Shown: positions 3,572-38,554, counted from the stretch's first letter. The stretch: 64,000 bases of DNA from a virus (IMGVR_UViG_3300005663_000033:1-64000), one strand, 5' to 3'. Notes: generated from the sequence alone by a model not told the origin. Translations and numbers: made by a program.

Positions 3572-6500
3572 TTAGATTCTTCTACCTCTTTTGATAGCTC
3601 TGAAAGTATATCCTTGGCGAGCAGCATTAGCATTTTTCATCCCACCAACACCCGATCCGCGATACATAACCTCATCTTTACCAGGTTTTTCTCTTTTATT
3701 TATATTCCCGGCTACATCCTCGTAATCAATATTTTCATCTGGAGCTATATCTGTATCATAGATATACTTGTGAGACAACAAAAGAGCCGTATAGCGATCT
3801 TTGCGAAGTCTACCCTTTCTACTACGACCCTCAACAGCACCCGGCCGAACTACCTGCGGAGTGTCAAATCTCTCTTTTCCTGTTGGGGTTTCACTCATCT
3901 GAATAGTGCAAAGTTCATTCTTTAATTCTTCAAGATTAAATACATTTTCTTCATAAGTATCAAAAATAACCCCCATAGTCTTTTCGGCTTCGATGGCAGA
4001 ATACATTTTTACACTATCAAAAGCTGGAAATAATAAAGTGCGAGTTTCCAAACTTTTGTGTAAGGCAATATTAGCTTGCTGATTTGATTCATTACTTTGT
4101 GCAATGAGATGTAAAATGTGGCGTCCATCAGTCTCTCCATCGGTGTGTTTCGGATCATCAATATCTATGACTTCATATATGGGAAAATCTCCTTCATCTA
4201 TGTTAAGTAATTTTTTGTTTCGGAGCAATTCAGCTACAGCGTATCCACCGCCTTGACTATCCATTTCTATCCGAACCGGACCAAACAATCGAACAATTTC
4301 ACGAATTCGTGAACAGCAGTAGGCGTAATAATCATCATCGGTTACTAATCCCCGCTTCTTACGTTTTATGAATTCCTTTTTGTTAACAGACCAACAGTAA
4401 ACTACTCGATAATGGTTGGACCAAACTTCAGTTACTGTTATGGCTAAGTTATCTCGCTCGGCAGCGGGATCAACACCCATTACATATTTAGGCCCCTTAA
4501 TTCCCCTCATTGATGGAGTAAATGTTACCGCACCGTCCGGTGTCTCAATTGGTTTATTTGGCCCAACAGTACATCCTTCTATTAAACTACGTGGATAAAA
4601 TCCATCAGAATCCTTTACAAAAATAGCACCATATTCCATAAGATAAATATTACGAGGTAAAGTTGCTTTAGCATGTGCTAATTGTCTTAAATCTAATAGA
4701 CCTTCTGGGAGATGGGTATGTGGAATTCGAATAATAGAATAATCTTTATAATTGAAGCTATCTGGAACAAGATTATCCCCTCCAAAAATCTGAGCAACTT
4801 TCTCCGGATCACCCTTACTGCGAATAATACCTTGCCACATATCATGTTTTTTAGAAAAATGGTTAAATGCATAATAAGCAGTACCAGAATATATAATCTG
4901 GTTGCCATGCATCTTACCATCATCGATAATTAATTTTTTCTTGATATCTGCCGGTAAGTCCATCTTTGCAAGCTGTTTATCAAAAGCAATCTTTTTCGCT
5001 TCTTCAACGGGAGTTTTGGAAGTAGCTGCAAAACCACGAACAACTACATCAAAAACATCTTCTGGAATTGATGCGAATTCATCTGCGATAACAACATTTG
5101 CCCTAAACCCACGAATTTTTGTATTGTGGCTGTGGAATCCATTGGCACAATACTCGTGACCATCTGGAACATGCACATCGAAAGTTACGCATTCATCATC
5201 TTCTATAGATACAATCTCATCATAATAAGTATCTGGATCAACAAGACGACGAATAGAGTTGATACGGGGATCATCGATATGTCCATATACTCTTAGGAAA
5301 TTCTCGACCAATGGTCTACTAGCTGATTTCTTAACTTTTAATCTTCCAACACAAACTGATACACAGTTACCAGTTCCATGTTTGGCTCTATGACTTTCGG
5401 AGATATCAATCATGTCATCCAAAACGTTGGGGATTGAGTCGCCTTGATCCATCCATCGCTTCTTCTTTTCAATTCCTGCAAGAAGTTTATCTTGTTTTCT
5501 TTTCAATCTAAACCCAATTTTAGTAGCAAATGTAGCTACGTCTCTTCCTGTTATAGATAATTCATAACACTCTTCCCATTTTTCATTACGTTTTCTGGAT
5601 TTTACATGAGCAACAATACCATAATGAAGTAGGATATATTGAAGTTGTCTAACAAGTTCTTTACTAGTGTTGTGGAAAGTTATTCCTATTTGAGTACCCC
5701 CGCGTTCTGTCGTAACCTGAACAGTACCATCTGTGTCGAACAGACCGGAGATAAATGCTGATGTTACATTACGTGGAGATTTAAGAATGGTGGATGGAAA
5801 TTGCTTGTCTTTGGTTTTAAGATGGTCTGTATCTATTCCAAATTTTTCAAATAAATTATCCCTTTGTGGCTTGCTGGATAATATCCAGTGCATTGGATCT
5901 GATGGTATTTGTCTTATTGGAACCAAGTTGCGAACAGCAAGAGCCAATTCTTCGTCTTGTGTAGCAAAGCCAATCCTCCCCGGAACCGTATAACTTCCAT
6001 CTCCAGCTAATAAGCCGAGAGCATATGCTTCGTCTTGTGATACTCCGGAATTCCCATCGTGCCACCTAAGAGAACGATCTATGAGGACCCTATCCCCAAG
6101 TTTCATCTCATCCATTCTTACCCATACAATCTTTTGATTTCTAACAATCTTTAGTTTGTGGTTATTAGTGGCGTTGAATTCGAATCCATGATGTGTTTTT
6201 ATTTTTTTAGTTTTTGATTTTCCATTACAATAGGACTCATCACTTAGTCTAAATTTGCCATTACCCCAAATTTCCTTATATCTTTTTACGGTAGTTTTAT
6301 TTGTTTGTCCAGAAACTTGGTCGTCGGATATTCTTCCAAACCCATTTTTGTATGTTACACAAGTTAAAGTGTCACTGCAACCGTCTCCCATTGGCAGCGC
6401 ATAGATAATACTGTCTCCAATAGTAAAATAGCAGAGGTCCACATTCTGTCTTGGGCCAGCTTTCTTCCCTTTACCAACAATACCCCTAAGCATTGGAGAA

Positions 6501-6940
6501 TCACTCCACATAGTATCTATGTAATTGAATACCAACCTGGCTTGACGTAAGCCAGCGCCAACGATCACAACTTTTGTACCAGGATCAAGCAAAGCCCGAA
6601 GAACTGAATATACAGCAAGCATGTAGGATTTACTACCACCACGACAAGCAATAAGCATCGGGAAAGGAGTATTCCACATCATCTGAAGTGTGGCAATTTG
6701 AATTGGAAATAAATCTATACCGAGAATAACCTTGGCCGTCCATCCAATATAATCAATATCTAACATTTTGCTTAAAACAACTTCATTCAATGGATTTTTT
6801 GATTGCTTTAAGTCAGTAAAGATATGTCGATCTATAGTAGGTACACGATCACGGAATGGAAACAGATGTCCATACTTTCCTTGCGCACCATATAATAATT
6901 CATCAAGAGCAATCTTAGTCTTACTGTCCATAGATAACAT
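3572..6940 (-). CDS. terL: Terminase large subunit, intein-containing
   Basis: Q motif (LFPIQ), Walker A-like ACRGGSKS, KIRG..VVIADEF Walker B, motif III-like YSGT, RNase H-like MGVDPA and C-terminal KDRYTA; next to the portal. Confidence 0.9.
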   Translation of the reverse strand: MLSMDSKTKIALDELLYGAQGKYGHLFPFRDRVPTIDRHIFTDLKQSKNPLNEVVLSKMLDIDYIGWTAKVILGIDLFPIQIATLQMMWNTPFPMLIACRGGSKSYMLAVYSVLRALLDPGTKVVIVGAGLRQARLVFNYIDTMWSDSPMLRGIVGKGKKAGPRQNVDLCYFTIGDSIIYALPMGDGCSDTLTCVTYKNGFGRISDDQVSGQTNKTTVKRYKEIWGNGKFRLSDESYCNGKSKTKKIKTHHGFEFNATNNHKLKIVRNQKIVWVRMDEMKLGDRVLIDRSLRWHDGNSGVSQDEAYALGLLAGDGSYTVPGRIGFATQDEELALAVRNLVPIRQIPSDPMHWILSSKPQRDNLFEKFGIDTDHLKTKDKQFPSTILKSPRNVTSAFISGLFDTDGTVQVTTERGGTQIGITFHNTSKELVRQLQYILLHYGIVAHVKSRKRNEKWEECYELSITGRDVATFATKIGFRLKRKQDKLLAGIEKKKRWMDQGDSIPNVLDDMIDISESHRAKHGTGNCVSVCVGRLKVKKSASRPLVENFLRVYGHIDDPRINSIRRLVDPDTYYDEIVSIEDDECVTFDVHVPDGHEYCANGFHSHNTKIRGFRANVVIADEFASIPEDVFDVVVRGFAATSKTPVEEAKKIAFDKQLAKMDLPADIKKKLIIDDGKMHGNQIIYSGTAYYAFNHFSKKHDMWQGIIRSKGDPEKVAQIFGGDNLVPDSFNYKDYSIIRIPHTHLPEGLLDLRQLAHAKATLPRNIYLMEYGAIFVKDSDGFYPRSLIEGCTVGPNKPIETPDGAVTFTPSMRGIKGPKYVMGVDPAAERDNLAITVTEVWSNHYRVVYCWSVNKKEFIKRKKRGLVTDDDYYAYCCSRIREIVRLFGPVRIEMDSQGGGYAVAELLRNKKLLNIDEGDFPIYEVIDIDDPKHTDGETDGRHILHLIAQSNESNQQANIALHKSLETRTLLFPAFDSVKMYSAIEAEKTMGVIFDTYEENVFNLEELKNELCTIQMSETPTGKERFDTPQVVRPGAVEGRSRKGRLRKDRYTALLLSHKYIYDTDIAPDENIDYEDVAGNINKREKPGKDEVMYRGSGVGGMKNANAARQGYTFRAIKRGRRI
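5123..6379 (-). mobile_element. Intein with LAGLIDADG homing endonuclease in terminase (419 aa)
   Basis: Junctions PMGDG|CSDTL ... ANGFHSHN|TKIRG; block B TNNH; AYALGLLAGDG and FISGLFDTDG. Confidence 0.92.
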
Positions 6941-6975: not shown

Positions 6976-7521
6976 CTAGAAACCAAAACAATCCCCTTCG
7001 GATTTTCCTTTAGGTTCTTGATAAATCCATCGATCTTTTTCAACCCTAACTACTTCTTCACAAATCATCTGAGCTATTTTGCGACCACAAGCTCCTGCTG
7101 GAATAAGGTGTACGCCATATTTAATTGATAAATGCATTAACCATCGCACTAATGACTTACCGGGTACTCCTTTGGTAAATTGAGGTGGAGATAATTCCAT
7201 AATATCTGGTGTAAATGATGACTCAATGATAATATACGGATATTTCATAGTGGACATGCGCTCCATCTCAGCCTCAAATGCCGATCGTTTTTTACTTCCG
7301 TAATTACCCCAAAGCTCCGCAAAATCGGCCTTGCGCTCAATAGCTAAAATATCGGTGTAACCTACAAGGCTATAATCCCCAGTCTGAAGAGTATCTATGA
7401 TCATACCTTCACATCTGGGGGGACGGCGATCTGGCACGTGCGCACTAAAGGTCCACCCGTAACCTTCTTGTTCTCTCGTATCACGAATTACTGTGTATGT
7501 CGGCAAAATTAAACGGGGCAT
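6976..7521 (-). CDS. ERCC4/XPF-type nuclease (possible resolvase)
   Basis: DTREQ, GDY, IERK and IIIE motifs. Confidence 0.85.
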   Translation of the reverse strand: MPRLILPTYTVIRDTREQEGYGWTFSAHVPDRRPPRCEGMIIDTLQTGDYSLVGYTDILAIERKADFAELWGNYGSKKRSAFEAEMERMSTMKYPYIIIESSFTPDIMELSPPQFTKGVPGKSLVRWLMHLSIKYGVHLIPAGACGRKIAQMICEEVVRVEKDRWIYQEPKGKSEGDCFGF

Positions 7522-10500
7522 TCAACCAACGCCTTGTAATCGCTCTGAATCATTCGATCAATTAGTTCACCGAAACAAATAGTTGACTCCCATCCTAAAA
7601 CTGTTTTTGCCTTACTAGGATCAGCATGAAGCAGATTAACATCTACCGGACGATAAAATGCAGGATCAATAATTACATAGTCACTATAATCTAGTCCAAT
7701 AGAATCAAATGCCAATTGTAGAAATTCTTTTACAGTATGAGTCTCGCCAGACCCCAATACATAGTCATCGGCTTTCGAGTGTTGCATCATCAACCACATA
7801 CCACGAACCATGTCTTCAGCATGTGACCAATCTCTTTTAGCTTCGATATTGCCCAAAGCCAATGGAAGAACATCAACATCTATACGAGGAAATCCACTGT
7901 TAACATCCATCCAATTCTGAAGCATTGCAACATATTTTGTGATCTTACGAGTAACAAAAGCCTCACCCCTACGTTCACTATTATGAACATGAGACATCCC
8001 AACACCACAATTAAACGTTCCAGATTCCGTTTCAATATCCAAAACATAATCTTCTCTTGGCAATTCAATTATTTTTGTTACTTCATTAGTCAATCTACGT
8101 AGATGTAGTCCCTTGCCAGTATCGTTCGGCGAATGAAAATTTACGTGATATGTCAATACATCTCTGTTAAAATATGTGTTAATATTAAAAGATTGTCCAG
8201 TTAATTGATTAATTATATAAATCAGACCAGAAGCTAAAATGGACGAATTAGTTTTAAAACTCTGATATAAATATGTGCATCTTGTAACTGGACTCTTCAG
8301 CCCGTCACATTGATAATATGCATCAATAAAATCTTTCCATACTTTGCTGAGATTCAAAATAATAGATGGAACTCTTTTCTTATTTCCAGAATATATCAAA
8401 TTTCTTAATTTAACTCTTTGTTCCTTATTTATTCCTCCAAGATATAGTTGTGTAGATTTCCCTCCAAAACCAGATTCACAACAATAAGTTCTGTGTGTAC
8501 CATTATATATAGTTTTCCACAAATATGCTACACGATCTCTAATGTTCTTATCATTATTCGTAAATTGAACTTGGCGATCAATTGACACATATCCATCACC
8601 GACAAGATATCCTAATAATTCAGCAAATTCTGGAGTGAGATTTTCTGATATGATTATTGTATCGGATGTCTCTCGTGGCATTGTTTCAACTAGCGACACC
8701 AAAGACCCTTTCTTCAAATGATCAACTCTAATATCTTGCCCATTTTCATCTAATGCTTTATGATGAGCCGTTGCATTAAAAGAACCACCGCGAGAATTAA
8801 TACAAATCATCCGATGATCACTGTTTTGCTCATCTGTTTTTGTGACTGTCGTCCACTTGATTTTTGTCCAACCATCCTGATCCCAGATATAAGTATCACG
8901 TGTCTCAAATGTCTGTGGCTTATTCGTTTCTGTATCAAAATTATGTAAATCACCTGCGGGAATAATATCTATCATACCATGTCGTTTGATGAATATCGGT
9001 GTATTAGTAGAAATGCATTCGTGGTTAAATAGAATACCCGCACAGGCGAAAATACCGTATGCTCGACGATATAAACCAACAAGTTGATGTGCGTATAGCT
9101 TGGCAACAGCGTATGGCGAATTGGGTACCATAGGTGTTGTTTCACATTGAGGAGCGATATCCGTTTCTCCAAAAAGTTCTGATGTTGAATTCCCCGAAAA
9201 GGCCAGTTTTCCCTTTCTGGAAATCAAAAAATTATGATTATCTTCCATAGACAAACACCAAACCTTACCCCTATATGGAACACGGCTTATGTTTTTTGTA
9301 TAAAGTTTATTTGTGGATTTTCCCGCAATGGTAAATGCATAACTTTTACTAGGAGTAACATCATGTCCACATATTTGTGTCACATTCGGCGTAGCATAAT
9401 TGTATGAACAATTTTTTCCTACATTTGCGCATAATCTAATAAAATCAACAGCTAGTTGATCTGATGTTGTTGTAAAATATTGTGTAACACCACCCCCTCT
9501 TCGATAACCGTCACTGTCTATTAATCCCTCAAATACTCGCTGTTGTAAACTTATCGGTATGGAAAAAACAAAATCTGGAATACTTTTGTATTTACATTTT
9601 GTTCCACACAAACGGAATACAGATGCTAAAGCCGAACAGGATAATTCTATTGTAATATCTTTGGCCCTAAAATCTAATCCAAGTTTATTGAGACATTTCA
9701 GTAATTTATTCCTTGCTTTATCTGGTTCTGGAACAGCAAAAAGAATATAGCTACTTTTACCACCAGACTCAATATCGCGATCCATATTTTCTGCAACAAA
9801 TTTACCATCAAAACTTTTGTTTCTAGTTGTCCCCATCTTTCCACTAAGAGTATTTCTAACGAATTTAACTTTTCTTTTACTAGAGGAAGCAAAATAACCA
9901 TCCCCAATATACAAACCAAGAAGATAATAGAAACATTCGGCATTTATTTCGTCAATTAAATTAACAGAACAATTATCTGCAAAATTATTGTTCGCTAGTT
10001 CTGATAACTTAACGGTTGATACATAACTCTCTGAAAAATGATTTGATGTCATAGGAATAGAATATTTACTAGTTCGACTATAGGGAAACAGTGACGCCAC
10101 ATTACTAGCTTGTTCCCTAACAATACATCCATCATCATTCCTCAACAGAACACTATGATTAGGTGTAACTAGCTGGTTGATCCTTCTACCCTTTAATGAA
10201 ACCATCTTCCCATCGTAGTCATATATCAGTTTTTTAACCACCCGTTTTATTTCAACGCACCCAGTCGATTCATTAAGTGTGTAAACACGATCACCAACAC
10301 AAATCTTGTCATATGATTTAATTCCATCAACAGTAACCACCTTTGTCTCCGTGTCATGGCAGGCTTGATAAAATTTGCTATGTGGTGAAGACTGACGAAT
10401 CGATTCTAGCATATTAAGTGGACCCACTGCATTAATTTGACACGTAGTGATAGGCTGATCAAACGAAACACCAACATGACTCATCGCAGCCAAATTATAA

Positions 10501-10733
10501 ATTTCATCGGGTTGAATTCCTGAAATCAATCGGTGCATACATGAAAAATCCGTAATATCCCCTTCAACTAACTTAAAGTTAGGATGATTCTGAAAATGAA
10601 CAATTCTTTCAGTAGTATTAACGGATGACCGACGAATCAATCCATAAACCCTATAGTCTTTCTCCAACAACAATTCTGATAGATAACTACCATCCTGCCC
10701 AGTCGTACCTGTTATTAGTGCAATCTTATCCAT
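7509..10733 (-). CDS. gmd: GDP-mannose 4,6-dehydratase with two inteins
   Basis: Spliced 337-aa extein: ALITGTTGQDGSYL, YNLAAMSHV, FYQA|STSELFG, SPYAVAK, GILFNHE|SERRG..FVTRKI, LGNIEAKRDW. Confidence 0.95.
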   Translation of the reverse strand: MDKIALITGTTGQDGSYLSELLLEKDYRVYGLIRRSSVNTTERIVHFQNHPNFKLVEGDITDFSCMHRLISGIQPDEIYNLAAMSHVGVSFDQPITTCQINAVGPLNMLESIRQSSPHSKFYQACHDTETKVVTVDGIKSYDKICVGDRVYTLNESTGCVEIKRVVKKLIYDYDGKMVSLKGRRINQLVTPNHSVLLRNDDGCIVREQASNVASLFPYSRTSKYSIPMTSNHFSESYVSTVKLSELANNNFADNCSVNLIDEINAECFYYLLGLYIGDGYFASSSKRKVKFVRNTLSGKMGTTRNKSFDGKFVAENMDRDIESGGKSSYILFAVPEPDKARNKLLKCLNKLGLDFRAKDITIELSCSALASVFRLCGTKCKYKSIPDFVFSIPISLQQRVFEGLIDSDGYRRGGGVTQYFTTTSDQLAVDFIRLCANVGKNCSYNYATPNVTQICGHDVTPSKSYAFTIAGKSTNKLYTKNISRVPYRGKVWCLSMEDNHNFLISRKGKLAFSGNSTSELFGETDIAPQCETTPMVPNSPYAVAKLYAHQLVGLYRRAYGIFACAGILFNHECISTNTPIFIKRHGMIDIIPAGDLHNFDTETNKPQTFETRDTYIWDQDGWTKIKWTTVTKTDEQNSDHRMICINSRGGSFNATAHHKALDENGQDIRVDHLKKGSLVSLVETMPRETSDTIIISENLTPEFAELLGYLVGDGYVSIDRQVQFTNNDKNIRDRVAYLWKTIYNGTHRTYCCESGFGGKSTQLYLGGINKEQRVKLRNLIYSGNKKRVPSIILNLSKVWKDFIDAYYQCDGLKSPVTRCTYLYQSFKTNSSILASGLIYIINQLTGQSFNINTYFNRDVLTYHVNFHSPNDTGKGLHLRRLTNEVTKIIELPREDYVLDIETESGTFNCGVGMSHVHNSERRGEAFVTRKITKYVAMLQNWMDVNSGFPRIDVDVLPLALGNIEAKRDWSHAEDMVRGMWLMMQHSKADDYVLGSGETHTVKEFLQLAFDSIGLDYSDYVIIDPAFYRPVDVNLLHADPSKAKTVLGWESTICFGELIDRMIQSDYKALVECPV
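7980..9017 (-). mobile_element. Intein 2 in gmd (346 aa, LAGLIDADG)
   Basis: FNHE|CISTNT ... MSHVHN|SERRG; ATAHH block B; LLGYLVGDG and FIDAYYQCDG. Confidence 0.9.
9189..10361 (-). mobile_element. Intein 1 in gmd (391 aa, LAGLIDADG)
   Basis: FYQA|CHDTET ... KLAFSGN|STSE; VTPNH block B; LLGLYIGDG and FEGLIDSDG; ends GN rather than HN. Confidence 0.9.
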
Positions 10734-11654: not shown

Positions 11655-12735
11655 AAGGTACACTCCTTTCCTCAGCACTCAACATAGCATTCATTTTCCA
11701 GCAGTGTTGTATAGCTGCTCTTTGTCCATTAGTTTCCATCTCATCACCAAGTCCAAGTAGTCCCATAGCATTGAATAAATCCGCCAAACGATTAAAGTAC
11801 GTATGTCGATGAGCCACATACTCTACACTGGCTTTTATCTTGTCAAAACGCTGTGACTGATCTTCTATCAGACCAATAACTTTATTCATAAAATCAGTTG
11901 TGCTGGTAGCTATTACACAATGTGATCCAAGATATTTAGCAACCATAGGATTATCAGATACCTGAATACCACCACAAAGTGGAATCATAAATGATCTTTC
12001 ATTGATACACGCCTGAAGACCAATTTGTCTTTCCGTGTGGACATTCGGGCATACCTTGGCAGTTGCATAGACATGAGCTAATTTGGTGATGTCGCCAATC
12101 AATGGACCATTATAATTAAGACCAGCAAGTTGCCAAATCTTGTCACCAAATGCCTGATAGGAATAACCAAGTAAATCGAGCCGTTTGAACAATGGTTCAA
12201 TCAGTTTCTTCATGATACCCTGTCTGTGATTAAAGTTAGCAACCATTGCAACATCAGTTAGTGTTGAACATGTCTTGGGTAATGCTTTAACAATATTCCC
12301 AGCCGCTGGTATATGTACAATCTCGATATCATTGTTTTTCCACCCACACATGTATTCGGACCATACGTTTGGCTGCAAACGGGTGTGAACTATAACATTT
12401 TGAATTTTTTTGATCAAATCTGGCTCATCATCATGAGCAAATTCATAAGGCCCATCAATCGTTATATTAGCTGGGTTCAAGGGCAAAGCCTCAACAGCAA
12501 CTGTTACCTTATTGTCGTTAATAACCTGAATAGGTAATTGCCTCATACCATATCTGGAGTGAGTCATAATAAATTGAATTCCATGTTCCTCAATCCATTC
12601 GCGACAACATAATTTATACTTGGGGTCTCCAACATACACTTTCCAACCAAGATATCGCAAAGCATCAACATATCCCTGTTGTATCATCTGAGATGTCGCA
12701 CCGGGACGTGAAATATATAAAGCACTTTTATTCAT
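11626..12735 (-). CDS. Glycosyltransferase (CgeB / Glyco_trans_1_2-like)
   Basis: C-terminal YATAKVCPNVH...INERSF..PLCGG.QVSD...HTYFNR pattern; near gmd. Confidence 0.75.
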   Translation of the reverse strand: MNKSALYISRPGATSQMIQQGYVDALRYLGWKVYVGDPKYKLCCREWIEEHGIQFIMTHSRYGMRQLPIQVINDNKVTVAVEALPLNPANITIDGPYEFAHDDEPDLIKKIQNVIVHTRLQPNVWSEYMCGWKNNDIEIVHIPAAGNIVKALPKTCSTLTDVAMVANFNHRQGIMKKLIEPLFKRLDLLGYSYQAFGDKIWQLAGLNYNGPLIGDITKLAHVYATAKVCPNVHTERQIGLQACINERSFMIPLCGGIQVSDNPMVAKYLGSHCVIATSTTDFMNKVIGLIEDQSQRFDKIKASVEYVAHRHTYFNRLADLFNAMGLLGLGDEMETNGQRAAIQHCWKMNAMLSAEERSVPYGEQVVGKV

Positions 12736-13648
12736 ATTCCTCTTCTCCAAAATCAGTCTCAGCATCCATAATAACGGGTTCTATACTACCGTCGGGAAAT
12801 TTAATTGGTTTACGAAATTCATTCTTGATATCATTAGAAGCCAATTTTGTTAATTCTGCAAATCTTCCCTGTCTATCTCTTTCATTTTGCGAATGCTGTA
12901 ACTTGCTCACTAATTCAAAAAACGTTGCTTTGCCACCCTTAAGTTCTTCTATACGATCTTTACGAGTAGCACATAAACTACTATATATTTTCTGTCTTTC
13001 TTTTACGAGAGCATCATAGCGATCATTGATGGTTTTGAGATATCGATACTTATCATCCAATTGTCTTTGTTGTAAAATACGAAATTTAATTGTATCCTTA
13101 TTTTCATCATCAGCCTTCGGATTAGCAATGAACCATACTTGTAACTCATCAATTTGCCGTTGTAGTGATTTTTTCATAATAAGCTGTTGATCTATCAGAA
13201 TCCTGTGTTTCAAAAAATCATCGACTTGCATGAACTCACTAATAACAATATCTTCAAATTGACAACACAAAAGTCCAAAATCCTCCATGTATACAGAAAC
13301 TTCTTCTGATTCAAATTGTTTATTTATAGTTCTGTATAGATGAGTCTTTTTAAGTTGATTTCTAAACCAATTGGCTTTTTCGGAATCGGTAAGCCCATAT
13401 GGCAATGCTTCCAACATGGGGGTATCTATCATATCTGTATCCGTTGGTTTACCGGATTTCTTTTTCACCCCCATGGCCCTACGTCTACGACGAATCGTAT
13501 CTATCGTCCATTTATATCCACATTCTTTTATTAATCGTTGTTGAGTACTCTCGTCGGATAAATTTTGCTTAATACAATCGATAAGAATTTTCAACGCCTT
13601 GGAGTTAGAGGATAATCTCTTGTTTTTAGCCTCCGACATCATCATCAC
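12728..13648 (-). CDS. Hypothetical coiled-coil protein (possible terminase small subunit)
   Basis: Basic N-terminal segment and long coiled coil in the packaging operon; TerS identity is positional inference only. Confidence 0.5.
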   Translation of the reverse strand: MMMMSEAKNKRLSSNSKALKILIDCIKQNLSDESTQQRLIKECGYKWTIDTIRRRRRAMGVKKKSGKPTDTDMIDTPMLEALPYGLTDSEKANWFRNQLKKTHLYRTINKQFESEEVSVYMEDFGLLCCQFEDIVISEFMQVDDFLKHRILIDQQLIMKKSLQRQIDELQVWFIANPKADDENKDTIKFRILQQRQLDDKYRYLKTINDRYDALVKERQKIYSSLCATRKDRIEELKGGKATFFELVSKLQHSQNERDRQGRFAELTKLASNDIKNEFRKPIKFPDGSIEPVIMDAETDFGEEEYE

Positions 13649-14358: not shown

Positions 14359-14451
14359 TAACGTTTTTTATTTAACGTCCGATAAAAACATCCCTCCATA
14401 TATATAGGGAGGACATTTTCGCGAAAACGTTCCATTTTTTTTAATTTTTTC

Positions 14452-14527: not shown

Positions 14528-15241
14528 ATGATCAAGCTGATACACGGCAAATTTGAGTTAATTCCTGTTTCTACCATCGAGAAGGTGGATTTGATTATTT
14601 GCGACCCCCCAGATAACATCGGTCTCAAATATGATGGATTTAAAGATCGACAGTCAACAGAAGAATATGAAGCTAACATTCTGCTCTGGTTAAGTATAAC
14701 GGCTGGTTTGACTGATGGACCTATCTTTTTTACGTTCAATGAAAAATGGACTAAAATTGTAGAAAACGCCATCGAATCCGTTGGTATCCCACTAATTCAA
14801 AGATTGCAGTGGTACTATACATTTGGGCAAGACCAAACAGGAAGGGGTAAATACGGATTATGCTATCGTCCAGTATATTGGCTCAACTCGGATTTCGTTC
14901 GACCAGAGCAGATTAAAGTGCCCAGCGCCAGGCAAACAAAATACAACGACAAGAGAGCCGCGAAGGGTGGTAAGATGCCCCATAACGTATGGGAATTCCC
15001 CCGTGTTTGCGGCACGTTCAAAGAAAGAAGAAAATGGATACCAACTCAGTTACCCGAATCCCTCGTAGAGCGTATCATCCAAGGCCACTGCCGTCCACAT
15101 GGTCGTGTGCTCGATCCATTTATCGGAAGCGGCACAACTGCGATAGTGTGTCAGCGGCTAGGATTAAACTGTGTCGGAATCGAAGTAAGTGAACCGATTA
15201 TCCAAAAAACAGCGGAACATTTAGGAGTAGGTTATGAGTAA
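14528..15241 (+). CDS. DNA N4/N6 methyltransferase (beta class) with atypical DPPD motif
   Basis: LIICDPPDN, NVWEF, PTQLP, VLDPFIGSGTT, GIEVS. Confidence 0.85.
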   Translation: MIKLIHGKFELIPVSTIEKVDLIICDPPDNIGLKYDGFKDRQSTEEYEANILLWLSITAGLTDGPIFFTFNEKWTKIVENAIESVGIPLIQRLQWYYTFGQDQTGRGKYGLCYRPVYWLNSDFVRPEQIKVPSARQTKYNDKRAAKGGKMPHNVWEFPRVCGTFKERRKWIPTQLPESLVERIIQGHCRPHGRVLDPFIGSGTTAIVCQRLGLNCVGIEVSEPIIQKTAEHLGVGYE

Positions 15242-32307: not shown

Positions 32308-32787
32308 TTATGGGACATGTTTTCTTAGTTTTGTTTTTCCATTTACAAGGCAAGATATCGCTGGCTGCGAAACGCCGAATTGTCTAGCTAAAGAAATTTG
32401 TGTGGTCCCGTTCCTGTGAAGCTTTATTATCATTGTTTGTTCTTTTAGCGTCAAATGGTGGTAACTAGCCCCAGGTCTCTTGTCTCCATACGATCCCCAA
32501 TCGAGGTATCTTTGCGACCGTAATCGACGTGGCTGTTGTCCCCTGGCCTTTCTTATACAAAGTGGTAGTTCCTCGCAGCACAGGCCCTTAAAAGCCGCAC
32601 AGACGAGTCTCTGAGTTAGTTTCTTCTTCGCGGAAGACCCCGTGTATGTATATTGAAAACCATCATGATGTATCACCGGATTAATTACGCGCCATCTACC
32701 AAAGAACTTACGCCAAATACGGCCTTTCCTGTCGGCAAAATATAATGGATGATCCGGTATTTGTTTTCTATCAATTCGTTTGGTCAT
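32308..32787 (-). CDS. NUMOD4/HNH-derived protein with C-terminal HTH (nuclease probably degenerate)
   Basis: KQIPDHPLY.ADRKGRIW, RLVCAAFKG, TQISLARQFGVSQPAISCLVNGK; canonical H-N-H residues not evident. Confidence 0.6.
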   Translation of the reverse strand: MTKRIDRKQIPDHPLYFADRKGRIWRKFFGRWRVINPVIHHDGFQYTYTGSSAKKKLTQRLVCAAFKGLCCEELPLCIRKARGQQPRRLRSQRYLDWGSYGDKRPGASYHHLTLKEQTMIIKLHRNGTTQISLARQFGVSQPAISCLVNGKTKLRKHVP

Positions 32788-33138: not shown

Positions 33139-33504
33139 CCTCTCTTCGATTTTTTTCATCTTTTTTGTCGTCCTATAAAGCGATTGATACAGGCGTTCAG
33201 AAAGGGGCACCCCCTTGTTTAATAAGGCGGGGGACTAGGTGAGAAGGAGTGTATGCGTTTTCTTGTAGGGCATGGATTTTTGGAGCCTAGTATGCCTAAA
33301 CCCCCGGCGGTTATCGGACCTAGCCGAGTTATCGGACCATCCTATATTACCGGCCCACCCCTTAGCCCAGATTTATCGGACCATCTCAGCTAGACATGTT
33401 ATCGGACTATCTTGCATGACATGCAAGGGGAGGTTATCGGACCTATCCTCCTCGCACCCGAACCCTCTTGAGTTATCGGACCAAAAGTTTTTCTTCTCGA
33501 TTTC

Positions 33505-33533
33505 TTGCCTTCGCGCCGATTGTATCCTAGAAT
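33505..33533 (+). promoter_or_regulatory. sigma70-like early promoter TTGCCT-N17-TAGAAT
   Basis: 17-nt spacing, T-rich upstream, followed by a GGAG RBS and ATG 33578. Confidence 0.6.
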
Positions 33534-33577
33534 ATATATGACATGACAACGCACACGACAAACAACGGAGAAAAAAG

Positions 33578-33691
33578 ATGAAACTACTTATCGGACTAAC
33601 GCTTACTGGAATCATCGGCTCTTGTGTTATCGGACTACTCATCAACGCCTACTCCTGGATTGAAGCATCGCTTCATTCAGTAGGCCTTTAA
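33578..33691 (+). CDS. Small membrane peptide (37 aa)
   Basis: MKLLIGLTLTGIIGSCVIGLLINAYSWIEASLHSVGL; GGAG RBS. Confidence 0.55.
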   Translation: MKLLIGLTLTGIIGSCVIGLLINAYSWIEASLHSVGL

Positions 33692-33702
33692 GGGAGAGAA
33701 TC

Positions 33703-33792
33703 ATGGCGACTATTATTATCGGATGTGCGGCAATGGTGGTTATCGGAGCGGTATGGTTGTGGTCTGTATTATCAGACCTTGAGGGGCTATAA
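33703..33792 (+). CDS. Small membrane peptide (29 aa)
   Basis: MATIIIGCAAMVVIGAVWLWSVLSDLEGL; GGGAG RBS. Confidence 0.5.
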   Translation: MATIIIGCAAMVVIGAVWLWSVLSDLEGL

Positions 33793-33794
33793 CA

Positions 33795-34052
33795 ATGGAC
33801 AAGACACTGGTGAAATATCGGACACTAGGCAGCAAATTTAACAGTTACGCTGTAGTACCTACCCTGTTCTTATCGGGCCTACTCGATTGGCTGAAGTTAT
33901 CGGAATGTGCGACGATCATCTCTACGACCGATAACTATCAGCGGATTCTCCGACAATCTGAGTTATCAGACCTAGCCGCTCCTGAATCATGGCCGAGTTA
34001 TGGGCAGTGTAAAGGTTACATTCTCGCTGTAGACATGCTGGAGTGCCGATAA
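33795..34052 (+). CDS. Hypothetical protein within the motif field
   Basis: 85 aa, GAGGGG RBS. Confidence 0.55.
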   Translation: MDKTLVKYRTLGSKFNSYAVVPTLFLSGLLDWLKLSECATIISTTDNYQRILRQSELSDLAAPESWPSYGQCKGYILAVDMLECR

Positions 34053-34287
34053 TGTTTGGACAAGCTAAACTTGAAATACCCACAAGCGGTAATATCGGAC
34101 CTTCCTGTACCACCGGATTATCAGACCAACTAGCTATGACTATCGGACGTACAGCAGCACGCACGTTATCGGAACAAGATGGGTATGTTGTAGTGACACT
34201 TGAATCAGGATCGGTTCGTGTTATCGGCTATAATACGATCCACGACAAACTCGTTATCGGACGTTTAACCATTTAAGGAGCGATAAG

Positions 34288-34644
34288 ATGAGAAACAGAG
34301 TTATCGGACAAACAGGCACGGTGGTGTTATCGGACGATTCGATCTTCCGTAGTAGATCACACAAACGGACCTTGCGCTACCAGTACCTAAAAGTACAGCA
34401 CGGCTGGATTGCGTGGATTTGCGGACCTTTCCATTCTCGGACCTACGGGGTTTGTAGTTTTGGGACCAGAAGAAGGTCGGCTAAAGCAGCACTTGCAACT
34501 CGCCTCGCAAACGATTATCGGTACTTAGGCAATCTAATGTTCTCGGACGTTGATGGGTCCGATACTGTAGGCAAGACCGATGCGCAGTTATTGGACGAAA
34601 CGACGATCAATCATCCGATAATGAGCGAATTGCTAGGCGTGTAG
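34288..34644 (+). CDS. Hypothetical protein within the motif field
   Basis: 118 aa, AAGGAG RBS. Confidence 0.6.
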   Translation: MRNRVIGQTGTVVLSDDSIFRSRSHKRTLRYQYLKVQHGWIAWICGPFHSRTYGVCSFGTRRRSAKAALATRLANDYRYLGNLMFSDVDGSDTVGKTDAQLLDETTINHPIMSELLGV

Positions 34645-35176
34645 TTATGGGGCGCGAAACCGTTTTCTGGATTAAAACCATACTGTACGCAGGTCTTATA
34701 ACTGTGGCAATGTGGTAAAGATTATGGGACCGGCGACATGCGCAATCGTTGGTCCTATAACTTTGCGCCGACCTTTGTGTTATGGGACGTTGAGCCGTGA
34801 GCGATTATCGGGCCTAAGTATAAACTAGTTTACCCTGTGTGTATTGTCCCATAATACATCGGTTTATGGCGCAAAAACGCCATTTCTTATCGGAAATCAC
34901 TTATAAGACGACTTTTTTATCGGAAAGGGTAGATAACTTCGCGGTTTTTAGCTTTTTCATGGTTATTGGACCCCATATTAGGACTAGCATAACCTGTATT
35001 ACAGGACTTTCCGATAATATCGTGGATTTTGAACAAATAACAGGGTTTTTATAGGCAAACGACCGATATGTGATCTCAAAAAGCGGACTTTGTTACAATT
35101 GCAGATTATCGGTCTAAGTGCGATAATATCGTGGATTAGGGTCTCTAGGCGCGGAAAAGTTTTTTCGGATTATACC

Positions 35177-35205
35177 TTGACGGCGTATATAACTAAGCCT
35201 ATAGT
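35177..35205 (+). promoter_or_regulatory. Strong sigma70-like promoter TTGACG-N17-TATAGT
   Basis: Near-consensus -35/-10 with 17-nt spacer at the start of the structured non-coding region. Confidence 0.7.
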
Positions 35206-35299
35206 ATTATGTAAGAAGAAAAAAGAGAAGCAAAAAACGGACCTTTAGGGGTTTACCTAATGAAGTCGTAAACGAAAAACGGACGAATGATTGTGGTTA

Positions 35300-35560
35300 G
35301 GTATCTCCGGCATTGACACAATAGGCCGTCGTGTCAAGTGCTCTACGTGGCGTATGTACCGCACGGGGAATTGTAGGGAGCGCTACCGATAGTTCCCGGG
35401 GGTATCTAACCGTTGTCATTCCGATGACCCGCAAGGGTCTGATAATAAGTGACCGGCGCAACGTCGGTCCGAATAAGGGTTTCAGTACGTTACTACTTGT
35501 CCGTCCCATAACGGGACGGAGTAGTCTCGGGCATGGGACGGGCGATAACCTTGCAAGGGG
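35300..35560 (+). ncRNA. Structured 5' leader or ncRNA
   Basis: Consecutive hairpins (GCATTGACAC/GTGTCAAGTGC; GACCC-GCAA-GGGTC; GGCGCAACGTC; TGTCCGTCCCAT/ATGGGACGGGCG) with G-U pairs and GNRA loops. Confidence 0.5.
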
Positions 35561-35567
35561 AATCGTT

Positions 35568-35879
35568 ATGTCTAACAGTGCCACTGGAACGATTGTCGAG
35601 TTTGAGTCTGCGACTTTCAAGACCAACGCCGCGATTTATCGGGCGAACAAACGCATGGTCGACGCCGCTAGTCGATACGACAGTGTCGATGACGCAAAGG
35701 CCGGTCTTGATGCAGCGTGGAAAGTTCTTGAAGCTCAGGTTGAAAATGGGTCGGGTTACACTCCCGATTCCAAGCTGGGCTTTGGGTCCGACAATGCCAC
35801 CGTGATTGCCGAGAGTCTGCTCGGTCGTCGCAACAGTGTCGGCGCAACTCGTAAGTCGTTCAACGATCTGGGCAGGTAG
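35568..35879 (+). CDS. Hypothetical 103-aa early protein
   Basis: MSNSATG.. after an AAGGGG RBS; the upstream extension in the ORF track lies in the hairpin region. Confidence 0.7.
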   Translation: MSNSATGTIVEFESATFKTNAAIYRANKRMVDAASRYDSVDDAKAGLDAAWKVLEAQVENGSGYTPDSKLGFGSDNATVIAESLLGRRNSVGATRKSFNDLGR

Positions 35880-35889
35880 AGTGTCTGAC

Positions 35890-37270
35890 GCACCGCGCCT
35901 CTAGCGAAGATAGTCTTGTATAGGCTATGTTTATAGGCCGTTAGGGGCGCGTAACGATGGACATTCTGACTTAAAGTCAGGATTGAATCGCTTGGTAGGG
36001 TAGCACCCTATCGTTATAGGTCCACTATCTAGGATCAGCGGTTCCCATAACCAACCATAGCGGGAGGTCCGATACGCATCGGGTATTCCCGGAAGAGGTT
36101 GGGTAGTAGTCCGATAGTCGCCGTAGTAGGGTCTATAAGCGCGCAGGACGTGCGCTAATGGGTCTCAACCGGAGTCAACGGTTATCGGTCGAACTCCAGT
36201 CTTGAGAAGCGACAAAACGTAGAGTCCAGAATGTGGGCTCAGTCTACGCCCGTAGTACGTGGACGGGATAAGTGACGGATCGTCTACACGATTCCTTGTA
36301 TGTCTGGCAAAGGGTCTTGGTACAGCGCCGAGGCAGCTAGACAGAAAAGGGTAGGTCGTGTTAATCATTTTACGGTCCTTCATGGTAATACGTCTATCGT
36401 TTTGGGGTAGGCTTTCTTTTTGTCGTGGGATAGGCATTTCCAAGGGCAAGTCCTGTAAACTCCGTCACAACAATTTCTTTCGCAAGGGTCTCTCGGGGTA
36501 TTGCTGATAGTTCGAGGGGTCTGAGGTTAGAATGTGGCGCGGTTCACGATCTTGTCGGTTAAGTCTTAGATTGGCACGCAACGGGTATTGTGTGTCCAGT
36601 CTCTGTTACTATTTTGCTGAACGACACGACACGACGGACGGGTTGAATAAACTGGTTCATTGCACTGGCGCAACAGTCTCGGCTCGATTAGTCGTTAAAA
36701 TAAGGATACTAGAAACTGTCCTGGGAAAACGGATAGCCAGATTTCATCTGCCAGGGCATTATCCGCAAAAAGCAGTGGTAGGACCTACGGGTCGGGAAGT
36801 CGTGACGATGGGCTGCATAGTCGTCAGTCACGATGGACAAGTTAGGTGGGTTGGCTTGTCAACTTTTTTGATGGCATATCATTATGGGCTGTGGAGTTAG
36901 CAAAGGGAATAATATGCTGGAAGTTAATCCCTGTAGGGATGCATCTTGAGTTGTCTAGCGCAAGACAATGATTGAGCTTATGGCATATCCCGGCGGGTGA
37001 AAGACGAATCTCTCTTTGTAGGTATCGCTAAAACTACAGGGGTACGATTCGTGGAAAGTCCTCCGATCTAATAGACGGGGGAGGTATTTATGAAGCCACA
37101 CTTGGCGCTACAGCCTGTAATGATGTGTCATCATTCGTGGCGCGTTGTCGAGAGATGGCGCGTCGCATTTGTTTATGGGCGAAGGCAATCCTCGTTGTCG
37201 TGTCCCGGAGGCGGAGCGCGGAGGTTAGAGGTAAACCAGCCGTATAACGCCACGCCATAGATGGGATGGG
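35890..37270 (+). ncRNA. Putative large structured ncRNA(s)
   Basis: ~1.4 kb with no convincing RBS-led ORF; many stems with G-U pairs (35894-35906/35939-35951; long-range 36272-36279/36461-36468; 36800-36833; 37004-37051). Confidence 0.5.
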
Positions 37271-37281
37271 TTCCACAAGGA

Positions 37282-37360
37282 AAGCCAGTAGCTCAATTGG
37301 TAGAGTAACTCCAGCCCATGGGCTCGGGGTAGGTTGTGGGTTCGAGTCCCACCTGGCTTT
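37282..37360 (+). tRNA. tRNA-like RNA with a 13-nt self-complementary 'anticodon loop'
   Basis: Acceptor AAGCCAG/CTGGCTT, D arm GCTCAATTGGTAGAGT, stem ACTCC/GGGGT around AGCCCATGGGCTC, T arm GTGGG-TTCGAGT-CCCAC. Confidence 0.75.
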
Positions 37361-38554
37361 TTAGGGAGGGCAATAGTGGGAGTTGGATTTTGCAGCCCAA
37401 CAGCGCCGGATTCGGTGGGGTTTCCGGTACACTTTTTCTTTAGGAGATTGCGATGCTGTTGATAATCAATGACACCGATCCGGTCAGCGAAAAGCACCTA
37501 TCCTGGAATATAAAAAGAACGGTAGGCGAGCGTTCGAATGTTCTTAGTTTGTATGAAATAGTCGAAGTCACATACAAACACCCAGACGCCGATGAATTGA
37601 CAATTCAGGTTATAGAGTCAAAACTGATAGACTCGGCCTGCGTACTGTCAAGCAAGGCGGCTTTGTGGATTTTGTTAGAGGCTGCATTTACGGCTATCAG
37701 CACAGACCGGGTGATAGCTTAGACAAGAGGAATTCCGATACACTTTTTCTTGTAGGGGAAATAAAATGACAGTAAAAAAACTCATCGTGGAACTTCAAAA
37801 GCATCCGGACCACTACAAGGTAGGAATTTACTGCTACGCTTGCGGCGAGGAAGGCAAGACAGAGGTTATTGAAGCAGAATCTTCATTATTTGACGGGAAT
37901 GAAGGTATAGTCACGATCTCAACCTTCTAGCCCAGTCATCACCCCAAAACAACTCCTTTTTCGTAGGGGAAAACTGTGATGGTTCAACCCGCTATCATGT
38001 TGGCCACAGTCCTTTTAGCTCTCATTGCGATCGTCGCAATGTTTGTAACCGTGGGCAGTATTTTATACTTGTTGTGGAAAGGACGCAAAGGATAGGTTAT
38101 CGCCCCACATCTACTAATCACCCTCTCCAAGAAACTATCCGGGATTTTTTATGAACTTTCCGGGGTTTTCTGATTAGTCCAGGTACTTCAGGGGTCATTA
38201 GAACGTTTGCATATTTATGCAAGTGTATTACTATGCCTTTGAACCAGGTGCCTGCCAAAAACGCAGCTAACCCTTCGCCCACGCTCTTTCTTACTATTAA
38301 GGTGTTTGCTCTATAGGGGGAGTAGTTGGTAAAACGGTACAAAAACACGCCTTACGTGGTCAAAAACACGGTTGCGAAGCACTGCGAGTCGGTCGTCGGG
38401 TCTAAGCCAGTTTGGCCTGTATCTGTTTCTATATACGATTTTGTAGGCTAAATGGGACATATAGCGAGTGGTGGGACGGAATGGTATACAGGGCGCTAGG
38501 TACGAAATTTGTATCTGATTTCTTGAATCTTGTAGGCTAACGTCCTGTTATCAA

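Follow-up and report, generated by a model that had tools for sequence, protein, structure and literature searches.

A polar field of dif-arm words around a core-like site in a marine-sediment phage, a candidate loading field for a Xer-family recombinase

In the early region of an uncultured phage, about 45 copies of the 9-base word TTATCGGAC are spread over about 3 kb, and their prevailing orientation switches at one dif-like core (34982-35007). The field is probably read by a Xer-family recombinase. The complete proposal, namely that a field of Xer-family arms surrounds the core at 34982-35007 and serves recombination, is put forward tentatively, at somewhat less than even confidence; strand exchange as the purpose of the field is, taken by itself, doubtful. 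A first-pass annotation made from the sequence had described a polar array for protein loading, situated at the strand switch and under selection as DNA. Our analysis supports this description and places the array at the skew minimum as well; the link to a recombinase, the core-like site in the middle of the field and the switch of orientation around it had been missed.

Extent of the field and its place in the genome

The DNA analyzed here, hereafter the window, comprises positions 1-64000 of a 113,443-bp record of an uncultured virus from marine sediment (IMGVR_UViG_3300005663_000033, estimated to be 68% complete), the phage genome size being about 165 kb. The stretch is present in four marine-sediment sequencing runs, in each as assembled contigs, and none of the runs listed for it is of RNA. 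A similarity search found no near match to this phage among cultured phages and the sole match of its portal protein was a remote Clostridium phage, indicating that the phage has no cultured relative or host to which it could be assigned. Its relatives were found by scanning IMG/VR for nearby copies of the word, with three or more consecutive direct copies as the stricter pattern. At least 12 records, referred to as group A, bear a field along with the 118-aa and 103-aa genes described below; their complete genomes are 160-180 kb, and every genome contains a single field, which coincides with the strand switch and the minimum of the skew.

Exact TTATCGGAC occurs 12 times in the 64-kb window, where 0.5 would be expected; 11 copies lie on the + strand within 33311-34335 and the twelfth on the − strand at 14377-14385. 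When up to one mismatch was allowed, the window gave 65 matches compared to 14.1 expected, 39 of them within 33311-35135 (32 + and 7 −). Counting over the record confirmed that the word is concentrated, with 47 of the 73 copies of the 113-kb record (one mismatch at most) falling in 33.0-36.3 kb, so that the field extends about 1 kb past the right edge given at first. Within 33311-35135, exact TTATCGGA was found 17 times on + and twice on −, in agreement with the approximately 17 + copies and additional reverse copies reported there. The lone copy at 14377-14385, which had also been pointed out, does exist and lies beside a DNA methyltransferase gene (14528-15241), but nothing marks it as more than a chance occurrence.

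The non-coding head of the field (33311-33481, +) holds six exact TTATCGGAC, all on + and spaced 18-44 bp. Throughout the field the spacing of copies is irregular, with modes only at 24-27 and 33-36 bp and no 3-base periodicity (R = 0.06), and both the spacers and the positions of the copies vary among co-occurring strains. Helical phasing of the copies was considered and rejected as not robust, the best period varying from genome to genome. In one related contig (G224, L567:5-199), the field head consists of eight 23-bp units in regular tandem, all of them containing the word, and the contig begins within this tandem.

The field starts abruptly at 33311, as had been claimed, at the switch from leftward to rightward genes, where GC content steps from 0.39 to 0.47 and cumulative GC skew has its minimum; the skew check gave the same coincidence of minimum and field in three to four relatives. 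This location would suit a replication origin with iterons or a centromere for partition, and both kinds of locus had been suggested here. We regard such a function as very unlikely: skew in group-A genomes tracks transcription direction, the copies are irregularly spaced, unlike iterons, and most of them lie inside genes. The origin finds no initiator gene beside the field, the neighbours being small unknown genes and an HNH remnant, and the centromere-like locus is likewise left without support, as no match to ParA (PF13614) was found in five group-A genomes.

The position of the field on assembled contigs brings up a genome-end signal, recognized by terminase or an ejection-control protein: the field might belong to a long terminal repeat, mark where packaging starts or be the segment injected first. 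The distance between field and contig end is 0-8 kb in 6/6 near-complete relatives, and in a T7-like phage the field lies 1.1-2.9 kb from a true 428-bp terminal repeat (96.7% identical) and adjoins the terminase gene. In addition, one sequencing run gave a contig spanning 32706-38390 at a depth of 12.7, compared to 6.5 and 7.1 for its neighbours, which could reflect a terminal repeat or a strain mixture. However, this two-fold step was absent from another, deeper run, contig breaks are expected anyway near a repeat-rich and strain-variable region, and the contigs of two relatives are circular assemblies with overlaps of 127 bp and 226 bp. In the present phage the terminase gene is 26 kb from the field, and a genome end would leave the dif arm and the core unexplained. 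We therefore consider it improbable that the field is such a signal; it could nevertheless be compatible with the recombinase proposal, and both may hold.

Several features of the surroundings were recorded. A tRNA-Gly(ccc) gene of 81 nt, unusually long, lies at 37281-37361 (ARAGORN; 50 bits with the Rfam tRNA model), and Rfam gave no other match over 32-39 kb. Between the field genes and this tRNA, about 1.4 kb (35880-37280), located 3′ of the conserved promoter-like site at 35177-35205, contains no credible ORF; blocks such as gaccgatatgtgatctcaaaaagcggac are kept in relatives with no match in Rfam, and the segment is possibly a non-coding RNA or a piece of the control region of the field. 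Two very long ORFs (3572-6940 and 7509-10733, 1122 and 1074 aa) show matches to terminase or nucleotide enzymes split by HNH or endonuclease-like segments, which suggests insertions of inteins or homing endonucleases. Outside the window, at 77484-78932 of the record, a BrxL-like Lon-type ATPase is encoded (PF13337, 4.5e-104), whose normal home is in BREX defence systems.

Small genes beneath the field

The copies cross six small ORFs, in which they are read as IG, LSD/LSE or YR, i.e. in all three frames. Five of these ORFs lie within 33311-35135, just as originally described, and the 103-aa gene beyond it is the sixth. The first two, all six being on the + strand, encode hydrophobic peptides of 37 aa (33578-33691, two exact copies read LIG and VIG) and 29 aa (33703-33792, three copies read IIG, VIG and LSD). 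They are followed by an 85-aa gene (33795-34052, five copies, homologues in two related phages), a 77-aa gene (34043-34276, five copies, a homologue in one related phage) and the 118-aa gene (34288-34644, seven copies, present in at least nine related records). Since homologues in related phages were found for three of the five ORFs within 33311-35135, these three are real genes. The 103-aa gene (35568-35879) is present in at least ten related records and contains a conserved − copy, which is GTCCGACAA here and GTCCGATAA in G002. On its 5′ side, at 35483-35520, a hairpin actacttgtccgtcc / gggacggagtagt with a motif-like loop was seen in four related genomes.

In the 118-aa gene, several copies sit at identical alignment columns across all orthologues, so the coding of one Leu-Ser-Asp site could be compared. 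Leu-Ser-Asp is expected to be coded as TTATCGGAC in 0.6% of cases, and outside the fields it was so coded once in 56 occurrences. At this site, on the other hand, TTATCGGAC was used in 4/4 orthologues that keep Leu-Ser-Asp; in the fifth orthologue (G004) the tripeptide has been lost. Selection is thus acting on the DNA of the field, with the word superimposed on the genes, and the codon usage bears out the view taken earlier that the DNA rather than the protein is selected.

Two gene products had been proposed as binders of the word. The one encoded at 12728-13648 has no family match. The other, encoded at 32308-32787, has a CENP-B-type HTH, yet it aligns to an intact HNH/NUMOD endonuclease of a relative and was rejected as the binder: this 159-aa protein is a decayed relative of an HNH/NUMOD homing endonuclease in which only the HTH is left, present in this genome and one relative only.

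The dif-type arm, the core-like site and candidate readers

The word was identified by a full-text literature search with the 9-mer. Its reverse complement, GTCCGATAA, is the left (XerC-side) dif arm in Anaeromyxobacter and Myxococcus of the Myxococcales (PMC2731167), and TCCGATAA makes up each arm of the 23-bp site belonging to IntA, a tyrosine recombinase of R. etli. The earlier suggestion of a host DNA-binding protein that reads the word comes close, as the word is the XerC-type arm of dif.

In Planctomycetota, GTCCGATAA-N6-TTATGTWAA, with one mismatch allowed, was found in 28/201 genomes, nearly always once (for example L419:1501-1524), and the reversed control gave zero matches in the same 201 genomes. 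This provides a candidate dif for Planctomycetota, for which a prediction effort in 2011 failed (PMC3025954); the site is a candidate because in six complete chromosomes GC skew does not switch in the 20 kb to its left or right. The word occurs at background frequency in three Planctomycetota chromosomes, without clusters around the dif-like site, and neither runs of three direct copies nor prophage copies were found in the 201 genomes. A pair of direct copies exactly 20 bp apart was seen in three Planctomycetota chromosomes (G016:460700-460946, lying between a PAP2 gene and an ankyrin-repeat gene, G155:1869562-1869590 and G191:1884865-1884893), possibly a small host regulatory site.

Among the bacterial loci returned by the search, none had a field, and the word stood directly 5′ of genes for Xer-like proteins or integron integrases. 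The single Xer-like gene of a Poribacteria genome (G020) is preceded by a palindromic full site and two extra arms. Elsewhere in that genome, palindromic GTCCGATAA-N6-TTATCGGAC sites are set in rows at intervals of 0.45-2 kb (L555, L557 and L558), which look like cassettes bounded by Xer-type sites.

Within the phage field the copies are solitary arms with unrelated flanks, each without a partner arm; no palindromic pairs of the word at 5-9 bp were found in the fields, and no ATAA at 6-8 bp upstream of the copies. The sole exception is at 34982-35007 (+), where GACTAGCATAA-cctgta-TTACAGGAC has the arm-spacer-arm arrangement of a dif-type site (two inverted arms of about 11 bp, 6-8 bp apart; here 6 bp). 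Of the two arms, TTACAGGAC is a variant copy of the word with two mismatches, and its partner GACTAGCATAA is a clade-specific arm. Both the architecture of this core and its place between the 118-aa and 103-aa genes are kept in six genomes (this one, G001, G002, G003, G221 and G223); the core was not found in G004 or in several fragmentary relatives.

The orientation of copies switches at the core. The upstream arm of the field (33311-34971) runs on + towards the core with about 31-32 + and 5-6 − copies (one mismatch at most), and the downstream arm (35009-36190) runs on − back towards it with 7 − and 3 + copies; the comparison of the two sides, 32 +/6 − against 3 +/7 −, gave p = 0.002. The same switch was observed in 6/6 genomes (p = 0.03 to 1e-5) and in the pooled counts (288 +/56 − upstream, 17 +/39 − downstream, p = 2e-15), showing that both flanks of the field point at the core.

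Fields are not confined to group A. Runs of at least three consecutive direct copies were found in 72 IMG/VR stretches for the word itself, compared to 80 stretches for the one-base variant TTATGGGAC, nearly all of which were single pairs; the variant served as the better control, since the scan with the reversed word was confounded by collagen-like coding repeats. Unrelated clades with genomes of 40-98 kb, one of them with a T7-type terminase, have smaller fields of mixed orientation in non-coding clusters, so that analogous fields, whose presence in related phages had been proposed as a check, were found in group A and beyond it. GC content among field-bearing contigs ranges from 0.30 to 0.65; the base preceding the word is a purine in all groups, and the word is extended to TTATCGGAC-S-T in one clade.

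A candidate for the protein that reads the field is encoded in the record outside the window. At 80958-81845 there is one Xer-like tyrosine recombinase of 296 aa (PF00589, 2.8e-42), which scored 224 and 219 bits with the XerD and XerC models, under their equivalog cut-offs, and is 32-35% identical to Planctomycetota Xer paralogues. It has the complete catalytic set of R, K, H-x-x-R, H and Y. The gene is 46 kb from the field among nucleotide-metabolism genes, its neighbours being ThyX, ClpP, a sigma-factor-like gene and ribonucleotide reductase. One Xer-like gene was found in each of the five group-A relatives that are at least 96% complete, and also in G002, and none in five complete genomes of other field-bearing clades. 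In the recombinase-free clades, CATAA and an exact copy are separated by exactly 6 bp in 9 of 773 contexts versus 0.75 expected, with no other offset prominent apart from those of inverted copies. CATAA at this distance corresponds to a XerD-type arm (TTATGT...) opposite a XerC-type arm, and such a XerD-type core is present once per genome in 4/4 genomes of one recombinase-free clade; a single site of this type is found in many of the recombinase-free phages that have fields. Clades lacking an enzyme thus combine the word with the universal XerD arm, whereas in the clade that encodes one the partner of the word is a clade-specific arm.

Alternatively, the copies might be operators for a non-Xer transcription factor of the phage that times or shuts early genes, with the match to dif being coincidental. 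The field spans the early gene block and promoter-like sites, namely TTGCCT-17-TAGAAT at 33505-33533 (+), a consensus match only, ahead of the first small gene, and TTGACG-17-TATAGT at 35177-35205 (+), which is kept in G000, G001 and G002. A back-to-back pair, TTATCGGTC-taa-GTGCGATAA (35106-35126), conserved in G002, precedes the latter site by about 50 bp, and the field encodes two conserved proteins without known function, those of 118 aa and 103 aa. Nevertheless, the 118-aa protein has no confident fold (poor AlphaFold model, pLDDT 43.5, with uninformative Atlas matches), and no protein family common to all field-bearing clades was found. Moreover, XerD-type partner arms at a spacer of 6 bp and the adjacency of the word to Xer-like genes in bacteria are unexpected if the match to dif is coincidental. 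An operator function of this kind appears quite unlikely.

In the recombinase proposal, the phage enzyme, and possibly host XerC as well, would load as monomers on the approximately 45 arms. Because their flanks are unrelated and partner arms are absent, the arms are not exchangeable with each other, and their role would accordingly be accessory, namely to gather the recombinase at the core and set its orientation. Strand exchange at the core could then take place between two genome copies or two copies of a terminal repeat, by which the phage DNA would be cyclised or monomerised, a job that may be likened to that of Cre/lox or the Tn4430 internal resolution site (IRS) on a far larger scale. 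That the enzyme keeps its catalytic residues and that the core is conserved speak in favour of real strand exchange at this site.

Several observations count against this proposal. The word arm of the core carries two mismatches here and no core was found in G004, and 45-100 irregular, strain-shifting arms do not resemble a topological filter of fixed geometry. A lytic-type phage that packages from concatemers has little use for monomerisation; in addition, no ParA was found in five group-A genomes and no prophage copy in the 201 Planctomycetota genomes, and the recombinase gene is distant. The pair at 35106-35126, upstream of a promoter, looks more like an operator. Considering the number of arms, their irregular spacing, their turnover among strains and the lytic gene content, an additive, non-recombinational role fits better.

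In such a role, a Xer-family protein would bind the arms without recombination and might act as a polar roadblock, as an unloader of translocases or SMC, or as a sink for host XerC. We consider this somewhat unlikely. For many irregular copies that are individually conserved, an additive role is suitable, and binding without recombination is consistent with the polarity of the field and with the occurrence of fields in recombinase-free phages. There are also precedents: FtsK is arrested at XerCD-dif (PMC2800217), and XerD at dif-like XDS unloads Smc-ScpAB, whose movement is blocked by an artificial XDS array (Karaboja 2021, as cited in PMC10945525 and PMC11840125). On the other hand, known XDS employ the XerD arm and not the XerC type, host-type chromosomes show no word clusters around the dif-like site, and the phage enzyme retains every catalytic residue, which would be needless for mere binding. 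A Xer-dependent swivel at solitary arms is conceivable, site-dependent DNA relaxation by XerC and XerD being on record.

It is also possible, and in our estimation unlikely, that Xer serves here as an architectural protein of the phage, with dozens of monomers pointing one way on each side of a dif-like core and forming a polar barrier or guide. If so, host SMC, SMC-like defence complexes, FtsK or the packaging motor would be stopped, unloaded or steered, and the field would be a miniature, self-contained KOPS/XDS/dif terminus that has repeatedly evolved in unrelated tailed phages.

Comparison with known systems

Xer/dif is among the most conserved DNA-protein systems of bacteria, and its only form in phages is, to our knowledge, one integration site in filamentous and satellite elements. 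Group A, with at least 12 large phages, and several unrelated clades spend kilobases of early-region DNA on solitary Xer arms. As the constraint on coding sequence is a cost, the word must matter early in infection or at the genome ends. If the binding by Xer-family proteins is true, the fields would represent a testable case of recombinase used in bulk, whether to provide an accessory architecture, to hold up DNA motors or to soak up a host protein. In full-text literature searches we found no paper that describes solitary Xer arms arrayed in phages.

The closest resemblance in sequence is to dif of XerC/XerD, with which the field shares a 9-11 base arm (of the myxobacterial XerC side), a core of two arms separated by 6 bp and a Xer-family recombinase at hand. 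Unlike dif, the arms here are solitary, number about 45 over 3 kb and run through genes of a phage, and the arm paired with the word in the core is clade-specific instead of the XerD arm. In the IRS of Tn4430, the TnpI core IR1-IR2 is accompanied by the accessory arms DR1-DR2 (PMC2847244), so that extra motifs for one tyrosine recombinase adjoin a core as accessory sequences, as they do here. That region, however, has two accessory motifs within 116 bp, in fixed geometry and on one side, whereas the phage has dozens, irregularly placed on both sides; the field is accordingly not a compact accessory region of fixed geometry such as those of cer/psi or the Tn4430 IRS.

The XDS of B. subtilis (Karaboja 2021, as cited in PMC11840125 and PMC10945525) are XerD-only Xer sites working without recombination, where arrays outdo single sites, and the field may resemble them in this respect; they differ from it in that XDS are located at the chromosome terminus, while the phage field is in the early region and has a XerC-type arm. 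With KOPS, which guide FtsK (PMC2800217), the field shares a short polar word converging from both directions on a dif-type site, but in the phage it is the arm of the recombinase that forms this word, at about a hundred-fold greater density. A Xer- or Cre-type site carried by a phage is also known from the attP of CTX-phi and TLC-phi and from Cre/lox of P1, and the recombinase-free clades, in which the XerC arm is good and the XerD arm weak, resemble the CTX-phi/TLC-phi elements. Those phages have one or two full sites and no field of arms. Group A further differs from elements exploiting host Xer in having its own enzyme, encoded far from the site, and it does not match an IMEX, which would lack a recombinase of its own and have copies integrated at the host dif.
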